Positions 26,890 to 31,669 of a stretch of DNA of 64,000 bases are shown here, one piece after another. The position numbers and the translations under genes were made by a program. This DNA is from Escherichia coli. Its GTDB lineage: Bacteria; Pseudomonadota; Gammaproteobacteria; Enterobacterales; Enterobacteriaceae. A model generated the notes under the pieces. It made no database searches, had not been told where the DNA came from, and saw only the letters and a program-made list of their open reading frames with translations. The stretch is from NCBI RefSeq assembly GCF_003334335.1, contig NZ_QOWQ01000003.1; one strand, 5' to 3'. The stretch's first letter is position 1, and every line of letters starts with the position of its first letter.

Positions 26890-26930
26890 CCCCGGCGACT
26901 AAACGCCGCCGGGGATTTATTTTATTTCTT
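26890..26930 (+). terminator. Intrinsic terminator downstream of fadK (between convergent fadK and ppsA)
   Basis: Hairpin CCCCGGCG...GCCGCCGGGG followed by ATTTATTTTATTTC on the plus strand. Confidence 0.6.
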
Positions 26931-29300
26931 CAGTTCAGCCAGGCTTAACCAGGTTTGCACCACGGTGTCCGGGTTCAGAGACAGGCTATCGATCCCCTCT
27001 TCCATCAACCATGCGGCAAAGTCTTCGTGGTCGGACGGACCCTGACCGCAAATCCCGACATATTTGCCCTGTTTCTTCGCGGCACGGATAGCCATCGACA
27101 GCAGTGCTTTCACCGCATCGTTGCGCTCATCGAACAATTCAGACACCACGCCGGAGTCACGGTCCAGACCGAGCGCCAGCTGCGTCATATCGTTTGAGCC
27201 AATTGAGAAGCCGTCGAAATATTCGAGGAACTGCTCGGCCAGCAAGGCGTTGGACGGGATTTCACACATCATGATGATTTTCAGCCCGTTCTCGCCACGT
27301 TTCAGCCCCTGACGCGCCAGTTCTTCAACCACCGCTTTCGCCTGATCTACGGTACGCACGAACGGGATCATGATCTCAACGTTGGTCAGTCCCATGTCGT
27401 TGCGCACACGTTTCACTGCTTCACACTCCAGCGCGAAACAGTCGCGGAAGCTGTCGGAAACATAGCGGCCCGCGCCACGGAAGCCGAGCATCGGGTTCTC
27501 TTCATCTGGCTCGTAACGCTCACCACCGACCAGGTTGGCATATTCGTTCGATTTAAAATCAGAGAGACGGACAATGACGCGCTTCGGATAAAACGCGGCA
27601 CCCAGCGTCGCGATCCCTTCAGTCAGACGACCAACGTAAAATTCACGCGGAGAATCAAAACCTTTCATCATCTCGCGGATTTCGTTTTGCAACTGCGGTT
27701 CCTGATCGTCAAACTCAAGCAGTGCGCGTGGGTGGACGCCAATCATACGGTTGATGATAAATTCCAGACGCGCAAGGCCCACGCCTTCGTTCGGTAGGCA
27801 GGCGAAGTCGAAAGCACGGTCCGGGTTACCGACGTTCATCATCACTTTCAACGGCAGATCCGGCATCGTTTCTACGCTGGAGCTTTTCACGCTAAATTCC
27901 AGCAACTCCGCATAGACGTAACCGGTATCACCTTCGGCACAAGAAACAGTGACGTTCTCACCGTCTTTCATCCGTTCTGTTGCATCTCCACAGCCCACTA
28001 CCGCCGGAATGCCCAGTTCACGAGCGATGATCGCCGCGTGACAGGTACGACCGCCACGGTTGGTGACGATGGCAGATGCTTTCTTCATGATCGGTTCCCA
28101 GTCCGGGTCGGTCATGTCAGTAACCAGCACGTCGCCAGGTTCGATGCGGTTCATTTCGCTGATGTCATGGATGACTTTCACCGGACCCGCACCGATGCGA
28201 TGACCGATAGCACGGCCTTCGGCGATAATCTTACCCTGTGAATGCAGCGTATAACGCTCCATGACCTGACCGCGTGAGCGCACGGTTTCCGGACGCGCCT
28301 GCACAATGAACAGTTTACCGGTGTGGCCATCTTTCGCCCACTCAATATCCATCGGGCGACCGTAGTGTTTCTCAATTTGTACGGCCTGTTTTGCCAGTTC
28401 CTGCACTTCTTCGTTGGTCAGCGAGAAGATGTCACGCTGTTCCTGCGGTACGTCTTCGATTTTAACCTGCTTGCCGTGCTCCTGGGTCGGCGCGTAAACC
28501 ATGCGGATTTTTTTCGACCCCATGGTGCGGCGCACGATAGCCGGGCGATTCGCCGCCAGTGTCGGTTTATGCACGTAAAACTCATCCGGGTTAACCGCAC
28601 CCTGCACGACCATCTCACCAAGGCCCCATGCGGAAGTGATAAACACCACCTGGTCAAAGCCGGATTCGGTATCAATGGAGAACATCACGCCAGATGATGC
28701 GAGGTCAGAGCGCACCATCCGTTGAACACCGGCGGAGAGCGCCACACCACGGTGATCGTAACCCTGGTGCACACGATAAGAGATGGCGCGATCGTTAAAC
28801 AGAGAAGCAAATACATGTTTCACTGCCACGAGAACGGCGTCAAAACCCTGAACGTTGAGGAAGGTTTCCTGCTGACCGGCAAAAGAAGCGTCCGGCATAT
28901 CTTCTGCGGTGGCGGAGGAGCGCACCGCAAAAGAGGCGTTTTCGTCATCGGCGGAAAGCTGTGCATAGGCTTCGCGGATGGCGTTTTCCAGCTCAGGCTG
29001 GAAGGGAGTGTCGATAATCCACTGGCGGATTTGCGCGCCCGCTTTCGCAAGCTGAGTAACATCGTCAATATCCGTTTTATCCAGCAGTTCATAAATGCGC
29101 TGGTTTACGCCGCTTTGGTCCAGAAACTGGTTAAACGCGTCGGCGGTTGTGGCGAAACCATTCGGAACGGAAACACCCATTCCGGAAAGATTAGTAATCA
29201 TTTCACCCAGGGAGGCATTTTTGCCCCCAACCCTGTCTACATCATTCATGCCGAGTTGGTTATACCAAAGCACCAGCGGTGACGAGCCATTGTTGGACAT
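26922..29300 (-). CDS. ppsA: Phosphoenolpyruvate synthase
   Basis: 792-aa ORF; PEP-utilising enzyme family. Confidence 0.97.
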
Positions 29301-29402: not shown

Positions 29403-29632
29403 AAATATATTTTTTTACTTTTTAAGACTGATCCCAGCGTTGCGCAAATCTGCTCTCTTCGACAATTTCCACATAAACCATCGGTATAAACGAAACCATA
29501 AAAATGAAATGCTGTTTTCATAAAAAATAAAATTGAAGGTTCATTTTATAAACCAGACATAACGTTCTACGCTTCTGTGCGTTTTTAATTTATGCTTTCA
29601 TAGAATTATGTCTGCATCACGGGAAGAACAAA

Positions 29633-30466
29633 ATGGATAATGCTGTTGATCGCCACGTTTTTTATATTTCTGATGGTACGGCAATAACTGCGGAGGTATT
29701 AGGACACGCAGTAATGTCACAATTTCCCGTCACTATCAGCAGCATCACGCTGCCGTTTGTCGAAAATGAGAGCCGTGCACGGGCAGTGAAGGATCAGATT
29801 GACGCAATTTATCACCAGACAGGCGTGCGCCCGCTGGTCTTCTACTCCATCGTGTTGCCGGAGATTCGCGCCATCATCTTGCAAAGTGAAGGCTTTTGCC
29901 AGGATATCGTTCAGGCGCTGGTTGCCCCGCTACAACAAGAGATGAAACTGGATCCAACGCCGATTGCTCATCGTACCCATGGCCTTAACCCTAATAATCT
30001 CAATAAATATGATGCGCGCATTGCGGCGATTGATTACACCCTCGCCCACGATGACGGCATTTCGTTGCGCAATCTGGACCAGGCTCAGGTGATCCTGCTC
30101 GGTGTTTCTCGCTGTGGTAAAACCCCCACCAGTCTGTATCTGGCAATGCAGTTTGGTATCCGCGCGGCAAACTACCCCTTTATTGCCGACGATATGGATA
30201 ATCTGGTGCTACCCGCGTCGCTCAAACCGCTTCAGCATAAATTGTTCGGCCTGACTATCGACCCGGAACGTCTGGCGGCGATTCGCGAGGAACGTCGGGA
30301 GAACAGTCGCTATGCCTCGCTTCGTCAGTGCAGGATGGAAGTCGCGGAAGTGGAAGCCTTGTACCGTAAAAATCAGATCCCGTGGATTAACAGTACCAAT
30401 TATTCGGTAGAAGAGATTGCCACCAAGATCCTCGATATCATGGGCCTTAGTCGCCGAATGTACTAG
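29633..30466 (+). CDS. ppsR: PEP synthase regulatory protein (bifunctional kinase/pyrophosphorylase)
   Basis: 277-aa ORF with P-loop GVSRCGKT; divergent from ppsA. Confidence 0.93.
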
Positions 30467-30477
30467 AGAACTAGTGC
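30460..30477. promoter_or_regulatory. TrpR operator of aroH
   Basis: GTACTAGAGAACTAGTGC contains the palindromic Trp repressor operator core ACTAGAGAACTAGT; overlaps the ppsR TAG stop, about 150 nt upstream of the aroH ATG. Confidence 0.7.
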
Positions 30478-30622
30478 ATTAGCTTATTTTTTTGTTATCA
30501 TGCTAACCACCCGGCGAGGTGTGACACACCTCGCACTTGAAATCAGCAGCGATTGGTTTATCGTGATGCGCATCACTTCCCGGCAGTCCTGCCGTAGAAG
30601 CAACAAATTTCTGAGACTTGTA

Positions 30623-31669
30623 ATGAACAGAACTGACGAACTCCGTACTGCGCGTATTGAGAGCCTGGTAACGCCCGCCGAACTCGCGCTACGGTATCCC
30701 GTAACGCCTGGCGTCGCCACCCATGTCACCGACTCCCGCCGCAGAATTGAAAAAATACTGAATGGTGAAGATAAGCGACTGTTGGTCATTATTGGCCCCT
30801 GCTCGATCCACGATCTCACCGCTGCAATGGAGTACGCCACCCGTCTGCAGTCGCTGCGCAACCAGTACCAGTCACGGCTGGAAATCGTAATGCGCACCTA
30901 TTTTGAAAAACCACGAACTGTTGTCGGCTGGAAAGGACTAATCTCCGATCCAGATTTAAACGGCAGCTATCGGGTAAATCACGGTCTGGAGCTGGCGCGC
31001 AAATTACTTTTACAGGTAAATGAGCTGGGCGTCCCAACCGCGACCGAGTTCCTCGATATGGTGACCGGTCAGTTTATTGCTGATTTAATCAGTTGGGGCG
31101 CGATTGGCGCACGTACTACCGAAAGTCAGATCCACCGCGAAATGGCTTCGGCACTCTCCTGTCCGGTAGGTTTTAAAAATGGTACCGATGGCAATACGCG
31201 GATTGCTGTGGATGCTATCCGCGCAGCCCGCGCCAGCCATATGTTCCTCTCGCCAGACAAAAATGGTCAGATGACCATCTATCAGACCAGCGGCAACCCG
31301 TATGGCCACATTATTATGCGTGGCGGCAAAAAACCGAATTATCATGCCGATGATATCGCCGCAGCCTGCGATACGCTGCACGAGTTTGATTTACCTGAAC
31401 ATCTGGTGGTGGATTTCAGCCACGGTAACTGCCAGAAGCAGCACCGTCGCCAGTTAGAAGTTTGTGAGGATATTTGTCAGCAAATCCGCAATGGCTCTAC
31501 GGCGATTGCTGGAATTATGGCGGAAAGTTTCCTGCGCGAAGGAACGCAAAAAATCGTCGGCAGTCAGCCGCTCACTTACGGTCAATCCATTACCGACCCG
31601 TGTCTGGGCTGGGAGGATACCGAACGCCTGGTCGAAAAACTCGCCTCTGCGGTAGATACCCGCTTCTGA
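30623..31669 (+). CDS. aroH: DAHP synthase, Trp-sensitive
   Basis: ORF track opens at 30500 (389 aa); start set at MNRTDELRTARIESL (348 aa). Confidence 0.95.
   Translation: MNRTDELRTARIESLVTPAELALRYPVTPGVATHVTDSRRRIEKILNGEDKRLLVIIGPCSIHDLTAAMEYATRLQSLRNQYQSRLEIVMRTYFEKPRTVVGWKGLISDPDLNGSYRVNHGLELARKLLLQVNELGVPTATEFLDMVTGQFIADLISWGAIGARTTESQIHREMASALSCPVGFKNGTDGNTRIAVDAIRAARASHMFLSPDKNGQMTIYQTSGNPYGHIIMRGGKKPNYHADDIAAACDTLHEFDLPEHLVVDFSHGNCQKQHRRQLEVCEDICQQIRNGSTAIAGIMAESFLREGTQKIVGSQPLTYGQSITDPCLGWEDTERLVEKLASAVDTRF

Follow-up and report, generated by a model that had tools for sequence, protein, structure and literature searches.

The TrpR operator of aroH overlaps the stop codon of the upstream gene ppsR in Escherichia coli

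Introduction

Among described systems, the closest to the site reported here is the operator of the trp operon (trpO), which is bound by the same repressor, TrpR, through the same 18-bp symmetric motif with two CTAG sequences 8 bp apart. In Escherichia coli K-12, trpO reads GTACTAGTTAACTAGTTC on one strand and lies inside a sigma-70 promoter, where it overlaps the -10 region, whereas the aroH box takes the -35 position. Binding of TrpR to the aroH operator and repression of aroH are established knowledge, and the range of this repression is modest. Classical mapping supports an operator-proximal promoter, with the operator placed at its -35 region. A different kind of precedent is provided by lac O3 at the 3' end of lacI, which, like the aroH box, is an operator for a downstream gene lying over the coding end of a co-oriented upstream gene. 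As for the mode of binding, a 1987 study by Kumamoto et al. reportedly dealt with tandem TrpR binding, as its title implies, and Klig et al. are said to have devoted a study to TrpR binding in 1988.

TrpR regulation of aroH is also stated in PMC5343134. In our literature search, neither the operator sequence nor the phrase "aroH promoter" returned a match, and aroH appeared together with ppsR or ydiA (the other name of ppsR) in incidental mentions only; a survey of CTAG in Salmonella lists a conserved CTAG between aroH and ydiA. The aroH operator is already known, and any annotated E. coli genome shows that it overlaps the ppsR stop. Here, we analysed this overlap and the ppsR-aroH intergenic region in a stretch of 64,000 nucleotides of E. 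coli (assembly GCF_003334335.1, contig NZ_QOWQ01000003.1; hereafter the window) and compared it with the corresponding loci of other Enterobacterales.

Results

The aroH operator includes the ppsR stop codon

The window derives from the E. coli chromosome. Over positions 30300-30700 it matches, at 100% identity, many complete E. coli genomes annotated with ppsR followed by aroH, and the ppsR-aroH stretch is identical to that of K-12 MG1655. The genes and the elements recognised between them are summarized in Table 1. A comparison of the intergenic region with Rfam returned no family, the sole match (BsrG, E = 5.6) being at chance level.

Table 1 Genes and sequence elements of the ppsR-aroH locus, in window coordinates
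Feature	Position	Strand	Description
ppsA	26922..29300	-	ORF list and annotation
ppsR (ydiA) CDS	29633..30466	+	277 aa; ends ATG TAC TAG (Met-Tyr-stop); ORF list, RefSeq annotation
Terminator-like element, ppsR RNA	30453..30493	+	Hairpin 30453-30483 and U-tract UUAUUUUUUU 30484-30493
Extended operator region	30457..30482	.	Outer palindrome AATGTACTAG/CTAGTGCATT and overlapping second palindrome
Core 18-bp TrpR operator of aroH	30460..30477	.	GTACTAG-AGAA-CTAGTGC; two CTAG motifs 8 bp apart
ppsR TAG stop	30464..30466	+	Within left operator half-site
Predicted P1 extended -10	30493..30501	+	TG 30493-30494, one base, TATCAT 30496-30501
Perfect 10-bp hairpin GCGAGGTGTG-a-CACACCTCGC	30514..30534	+	Between P1 and P2; inverted-repeat search
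P2	30537..30572	+	-35 TTGAAA 30537-30542, 16-bp spacer, -10 TATCGT 30559-30564, TSS A30572
Palindrome GTGATGCGCATCAC	30563..30576	.	Across P2 -10 and start site
Hairpin CGGCAG-tc-CTGCCG	30581..30594	+	P2 5'UTR; inverted-repeat search
aroH CDS	30623..31669	+	Trp-sensitive DAHP synthase, 348 aa; ORF list and annotation

The sequence over the end of ppsR runs ...CGA ATG TAC TAG AGA ACT AGT GC..., in which the left operator half-site GTACTAG is made up of the G of the ATG codon, the TAC codon (Tyr) and the TAG stop. Read directly from the sequence, GTACTAGAGAACTAGTGC occupies 30460-30477 and the 14-nt ACTAGAGAACTAGT occupies 30462-30475, with the two CTAG motifs at 30463 and 30471. The window contains no other copy of the 18-mer GTACTAGAGAACTAGTGC when up to three mismatches are allowed (0.04 occurrences expected). 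When the window was scanned with the idealised TrpR consensus GTACTAGTTAACTAGTAC, again with up to three mismatches, the aroH box was the sole match and 100 dinucleotide-preserving shuffles gave none. The box agrees with this consensus at 15 of 18 positions. The same scan applied to the TrpR-target promoters of K-12 found 1 mismatch for the trp operator, 3 for aroH, 4 each for trpR and mtr, and 5 for aroL, which makes the aroH box the second-best of the five; by this measure, it is a typical and relatively good member of the K-12 TrpR set. Furthermore, the operator lies upstream of aroH, a gene of aromatic amino-acid metabolism, and falls within the predicted promoter P1 described below.

The symmetry extends beyond the core motif. 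A second palindrome, centred on ACTAGT, has the arms CTAGAGAACTAGT and ACTAGTGCATTAG (30463-30475 and 30470-30482), and a third, degenerate TTAG lies 8 bp beyond the second CTAG, giving three xTAG motifs at 8-bp intervals. This periodicity fits tandem TrpR binding, as suggested by the title of the 1987 study. We consider it very probable that 30460-30477 is the classical aroH TrpR operator, long known as such, with TrpR binding taken from the literature and the consensus match and symmetry established here. The palindrome was also considered as a mere RNA hairpin, and this reading was rejected: its arms are invariant and do not covary, its centre is variable, and it matches the TrpR consensus.

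The register of the overlap is conserved within Enterobacteriaceae

We scanned one genome per species for the ppsR locus, which provided 80 Enterobacteriaceae loci; Klebsiella was added and, with the window counted, the set came to 82. In 78 of the 82 loci, a box of the form GTACTA[A/G]-NNN-[A/G]CTAGTNN begins precisely 4 nt ahead of the first stop base, with the same register on ATG-TAC-TAx, although these are related species and do not amount to 78 independent observations. The original prediction had placed a TrpR palindrome over the ppsR TAG and had proposed that the regulatory DNA of aroH starts within the 3' end of ppsR. Both claims are borne out: the stop at 30464-30466 lies inside the palindrome, in its left half-site, and the arrangement recurs across the family in this one register.

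The overlap is accompanied by a distinctive codon usage at the end of ppsR. All 78 box loci use TAC as the final Tyr codon, whereas two Arg codons and a Leu codon just upstream of it are each written with four to six synonymous codons over the same loci. TAT does occur for the last Tyr where the box does not overlap the stop, namely in two Enterobacteriaceae loci (L033 and L036) and in Erwinia and Dickeya. This pattern indicates that the operator overlap constrains the synonymous site of the last ppsR Tyr codon.

A further regularity links the stop codon with the right half-site. The stop is TAA in 63 of the box loci and TAG in 15. The right half is imperfect (GTGC, GTAT or GTTC) in every one of the 15 TAG loci, while a perfect right half, CTAGTAC, is present in 54 of the 63 TAA loci, and in none of the 78 are both half-sites perfect. 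The pattern is suggestive of selection for an intermediate operator strength, with weak statistics given that TAG arose in about three clades.

Four loci depart from the common arrangement, and two of them show how box and stop can be separated. In L070, a complete box, GAACTAGTAAGCTAGTAC, stands 20 nt after the ppsR stop, and in L033 about 200 bp lie between the stop and an intact GTACTAACAAGCTAGTAC, which is followed by TATGAT. That the box is kept apart from the stop in these two loci implies selection on the box for its operator function itself. In L040, aroH has been lost downstream of ppsR, and in L036 the left half-site is degraded and PpsR is one residue longer.

The gene order is older than the operator

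The order ppsA(-)/ppsR(+)/DAHP synthase(+) is kept in Erwinia, Pantoea, Dickeya, Serratia and Yersinia, with a synthase that shares 71-80% identity with E. coli AroH along its entire length. No TrpR box was found after ppsR in any of these five genera, the best match having at least 8 mismatches. The C-terminal residues of PpsR are ...RRMY in Erwiniaceae and Pectobacteriaceae and ...RRMF in Yersiniaceae, and a GC-rich hairpin follows the ppsR stop in Erwinia and Serratia. The operator appears to be an innovation at the family level that made use of terminal codons already present in ppsR. Most simply, the operator and P1 would have arisen within the Enterobacteriaceae lineage, with the ATG-TAY-TAA end of ppsR used as a half-site; a pre-existing Met-Tyr-stop sequence (GTAYTAx) would probably have been recruited as one half of the palindrome, a case of exaptation. 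The phylogenetic limit agrees with that of a RegPrecise-type reconstruction of the TrpR regulon in Proteobacteria (PMC5343134), which confines TrpR control of aroH to closely related Enterobacterales.

An operator-proximal promoter, P1, is predicted from a fixed -10-like element

Downstream of the box, the element TG-T-TATCAT begins 16 nt after its end and forms an extended -10 whose hexamer matches TATAAT at five of six positions. With a 17-bp spacer, the corresponding -35 falls on the right operator half-site (approximately 30472-30478); it is poor, AGTGCA, with 2-3 of 6 matches. The start of P1 is predicted at about 30505-30509. Most loci have a TAnnnT hexamer at a constant distance from the box, 31-33 nt past the first stop base, and in an alignment of 24 genera T30496 is invariant and A30500 nearly so, the surroundings being otherwise variable. 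Tryptophan-bound TrpR at the operator would exclude RNA polymerase from P1 by occluding the -35 region.

Published start-site maps were consulted for P1. Kim et al. 2012 sequenced TEX-enriched 5'-RACE products from cells grown in M9 glucose and dropped start sites below 50% of the strongest signal. In the part of their genome-wide list covered here, no aroH start is given at P1, and no start of the Klebsiella aroH orthologue is found among the matches listed in their tables. The SMRT-Cappable-seq supplements have no entry for the ppsR-aroH region, and the Cappable-seq tables contain no matching coordinates. Cells in minimal medium still make tryptophan, which bears on the absence of P1 from the Kim et al. 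2012 list.

A second, better conserved promoter lies downstream

The covered part of the Kim et al. 2012 supplement gives one start site for aroH, position 1786408 of NC_000913.2, which is backed by 414 reads and leaves a 5'UTR of 51 nt. This position corresponds to 30572 in the window, approximately 100 nt downstream of the palindrome and 8 nt past the -10 of P2, a site that our promoter scan had flagged independently. P2 has the hexamers, the 16-bp spacing and the mapped start of a sigma-70 promoter. For the original prediction, under which the aroH start was expected near the palindrome, the outcome is mixed: the sole listed start is the distant one, and the 50% filter leaves room for an operator-proximal promoter in addition.

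P2 is the best-conserved block of the ppsR-aroH intergenic region. Its geometry (TTGAAA/T, 16-bp spacer, TAnnGT) is found in 62 of 74 anchored loci, and it also occurs in Erwinia, Pantoea, Serratia and Yersinia, all of them box-less. Its presence in box-less genera implies that P2 is ancestral. As judged by position, at approximately 100 nt beyond the operator, P2 should be outside the reach of TrpR occlusion. The aroH gene is probably served by tandem promoters, a TrpR-controlled P1 and a TrpR-independent P2. A second promoter outside TrpR control would make repression of aroH partial and would account for its modest range.

These same data could be taken to mean that aroH is transcribed essentially from P2 only, with the palindrome some 100 bp upstream being a weak or vestigial site and not an operator within a promoter. 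The single listed start and its read count favour this, as does the conservation of the P2 -35, -10 and spacing, which exceeds that of the P1 region, together with the greater age of P2 relative to the box. On the other hand, the start-site list was filtered relative to the strongest signal, the box and the -10-like hexamer at its fixed offset are maintained throughout the family, even where they are separated from the stop, and TrpR regulation of aroH is established (PMC5343134). We regard transcription from P2 alone as improbable and retain the tandem arrangement.

Further elements surround P2. The palindrome across its -10 and start site has the form GTGAT-N4-ATCAC; its arms are near-invariant, being retained by 72 of the 74 anchored loci, and its 4-bp centre varies. 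The overlapping cGTGATGCGCATCACt (30562-30577) agrees with the CRP motif TGTGA-N6-TCACA at 8 of 10 core positions, and the CRP-like palindrome is unique in the window (0.03 expected); it may represent a candidate CRP site. Upstream, the perfect 10-bp hairpin at 30514-30534 occupies the same place as the GC-rich hairpin that follows ppsR in Erwinia and Serratia, and it is without a U-tract. In 50 of 74 loci, the 48-nt segment preceding the P2 -35 folds at -8 kcal/mol or lower, the structure being kept while the sequences differ between genera. Downstream, the hairpin at 30581-30594 shows apparent compensatory changes in other genera, by eye only, and RNAalifold gave no consensus.

A terminator-like hairpin and read-through from ppsR

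In the ppsR RNA, the operator palindrome takes the shape of a terminator. Together with two outer G-C pairs, it folds over 30453-30483 into a hairpin of 12 pairs (dG -13.7 kcal/mol, z -3.38), the U-tract UUAUUUUUUU starts directly after the last pair of the hairpin, and the 5' arm at 30457-30466 comprises the final 10 nt of the ppsR ORF, stop included. This combination of hairpin and U-tract is limited to Escherichia and the Citrobacter freundii group.

The operator palindrome might double as the stem of an intrinsic terminator of ppsR in E. coli, with the T-run of the P1 spacer as its U-tract. The ppsR transcript would then end at about 30490-30493, before the P1 -10 and start, insulating aroH, and this function would add to the operator role. 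The stability of the hairpin and the U-tract that follows it agree with such dual use, as do a terminator scan that flags 30457-30480 with AGCTTATTTT, the sharing of the geometry by other Escherichia and the Citrobacter freundii group, and the invariance of the T-run among sampled E. coli. However, the stem is rich in A-U pairs (3 G-C pairs within its 10-pair core and 5 among all 12), its stability is an automatic consequence of a palindromic operator, and the terminator scan found 1 site against 2.0 expected from shuffles. Most genera, among them Enterobacter, Kluyvera and Leclercia, lack the U-tract, and a terminating ribosome would hinder folding of an arm that lies inside the end of the ORF. 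Moreover, no 3' end at the U-tract is present among the Adams 2021 Term-seq and TERMITe entries listed, for a gene that is weakly expressed; the sole Adams 2021 Term-seq entry listed near ppsR is an antisense 3' end inside ppsR. The dual use is, in our view, a tentative proposal, somewhat doubtful on this balance.

The original prediction had also raised the possibility that ppsR read-through interferes with aroH control. In the part of the Kim et al. 2012 data covered here, the ppsR start has 7-8 reads against 414 for aroH, approximately 50-fold fewer. With start signals of this size, read-through would probably contribute little to the transcription of aroH, and interference with aroH is probably small, as judged from the reads and the terminator-like geometry.

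A different consequence of the overlap would be an action of TrpR on ppsR itself. TrpR at the operator might act mainly as a road-block to elongating polymerase a few codons short of the ppsR stop, yielding stop-less mRNA and tmRNA-tagged PpsR and coupling tryptophan status to PEP synthetase control. The geometry is suitable, the operator starting 4 nt before the ppsR stop, and a metabolic link is at hand in that PpsA makes the PEP that AroH consumes. There is precedent in LacI bound at O3 at the end of lacI, for which a road-block with stop-less mRNA and tmRNA tagging has been reported. Nevertheless, ppsR is weakly transcribed, the box persists off ppsR in L033 and L070, and TrpR operators are bound relatively weakly and transiently. 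We consider a road-block on ppsR as the main role of the site highly improbable, and keep to the reading of the site as the operator of aroH.

Discussion

The analysis places the classical TrpR operator of aroH on the last codons of ppsR. The more far-reaching aspects of the locus, that is, the conservation of the register, the constraint on a synonymous site, the family-level origin of the operator and the conserved P2 with its CRP-like palindrome, may be undescribed, in a search that was made outside RegulonDB, EcoCyc and the subscription literature. The portion of PMC5343134 covered here contains no account of the ppsR stop overlap, the conservation of its register or the second promoter, all of which are described in this study.

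The locus can be seen as a natural example in which the half-site of a transcription factor constrains the choice of a synonymous codon and of a stop codon across a bacterial family. There is also a practical side. The second promoter of aroH matters for the engineering of aromatic amino-acid flux and for tryptophan sensors based on aroH. In genome recoding, the replacement of the ppsR TAG by TAA necessarily alters the operator, which would call for caution: TAA is the natural stop in most Enterobacteriaceae, but it is paired there with a perfect right half-site that E. coli does not have.

The separate readings could also be combined. The overlap would then be DNA in triple use, as the end of ppsR, as half of the operator and, in Escherichia and Citrobacter, as a terminator arm; it would have been exapted in the ancestor of Enterobacteriaceae upstream of an older promoter independent of TrpR and possibly under CRP control, with the operator held at sub-maximal strength, and possibly with feedback on ppsR. 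As a whole, this composite seems unlikely. If it were true, road-blocking of ppsR by TrpR would tie tryptophan status to the supply of PEP.

Compared with trpO, which has one mismatch to the consensus against three for the aroH box, the aroH box is distinguished by its overlap with the coding end of an upstream gene and by the second promoter downstream. The sites of trpR, mtr and aroL are weaker TrpR boxes (4-5 mismatches) at their expected promoters, and the aroH box is closer to the consensus. The trpR box in K-12 resembles the aroH box in following an upstream gene (slt) after a short gap; nevertheless, none of the trpR, mtr and aroL boxes was seen to include an upstream stop codon, unlike the aroH box. 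The likeness to lac O3 concerns position and does not extend to function, since O3 is an auxiliary operator that serves looping and overlaps the gene for its own repressor, whereas the aroH site is the primary operator and lies on ppsR, a gene unrelated to TrpR.

Conservation and activity of the second aroH promoter

Downstream of the inferred operator-proximal aroH promoter (P1), the ppsR-aroH spacer contains a second promoter (P2), accompanied by two hairpins and a palindrome. The transcription start site of P2 was mapped at 30572 with 414 reads (Kim 2012). Our cross-species comparison showed that P2 is more conserved than P1, and in Erwinia, Pantoea, Serratia, and Yersinia it was present with the TrpR box absent. 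Loci of the Citrobacter freundii group (L007, L008, L010-L013, and L016) have lost approximately 30 bp, located about 40-70 nt past the ppsR stop, which eliminated both the hairpin between P1 and P2 and the -35 element of P2, and shortened the intergenic region to 125-126 nt (versus 156 nt). The P2 -10 region of these loci reads TGaTATTGT, and, judging by this motif, a switch to an extended -10 promoter is possible.

Features of the ppsR-aroH spacer (window coordinates)
Feature	Position	Sequence	Location
Inter-promoter hairpin	30514-30534	GCGAGGTGTG/CACACCTCGC (perfect, 10 bp)	Between P1 and P2
P2, second aroH promoter	30537-30572	TTGAAA-16-TATCGT	
Palindrome	30563-30576	GTGATGCGCATCAC	Spans P2 -10 and start site
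Leader hairpin	30581-30594	CGGCAG-tc-CTGCCG	+10 to +23 of P2 transcript

The inter-promoter hairpin, which has no U-tract, is the positional counterpart of a GC-rich post-ppsR hairpin in Erwinia and Serratia, and a different hairpin occupies the equivalent place in other genera (e.g., CGGGGCG...CGCCCCG in Enterobacter). It possibly serves as a stabilizer of the mRNA 5' end or represents the remnant of a ppsR terminator. For the leader hairpin, reading by eye only, we noted apparent compensatory changes in E. albertii (UGGCA/UGCCA), Kluyvera (CCAG/CUGG), and Leclercia (CGGUAA/UUACCG); RNAalifold run on the cross-genus alignment returned no consensus for it.

Transcription of ppsR

The ppsR start sites at 29603 and 29608, which sit 25-30 nt 5' of the ATG, were represented by 8 and 7 reads, respectively, and those of ppsA and aroH in M9 glucose by 420 and 414 reads (Kim 2012). 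Transcription of ppsR in M9 glucose is very weak compared with that of ppsA and aroH. Furthermore, Term-seq placed a strong antisense RNA 3' end inside ppsR, at NC_000913.3 1787648 on the minus strand, corresponding to window position 29836 (Adams et al. 2021).

Variation around the operator and the ppsR stop codon

Within E. coli, polymorphisms of the spacer were concentrated at 30478-30488, the approximately 10 bp from the operator core to the T-run on its 3' side, and the sampled strains showed no variation in the operator core or T-run, in either -10 element, or anywhere in the P2 block. One locus, L094 (E. coli A39, NZ_CP028737.1), carries a 2-bp TA insertion directly 5' of the T-run, within this polymorphic segment, and the annotation of this strain lists aroH as a pseudogene with a frameshift.

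Two natural variants have the TrpR box at a distance from the ppsR stop, namely 20 nt in L070 (3332-3400) and approximately 200 nt in L033 (3330-3560), and both retained a -10-like hexamer 3' of the box. As the stop codon (30464-30466) lies in the left CTAG of the operator, genome-wide recoding of TAG to TAA would necessarily alter the G of this CTAG, and the E. coli operator would be expected to be left with two imperfect half-sites, a combination that only a minority of species carry in nature.

A CRP-like palindrome at P2

A limited literature search turned up no account of aroH being regulated by CRP. The GTGAT/ATCAC arms of the P2 palindrome were retained in 72 of the 74 anchored loci, with a variable 4-bp center, and the palindrome matches the core of the CRP consensus.
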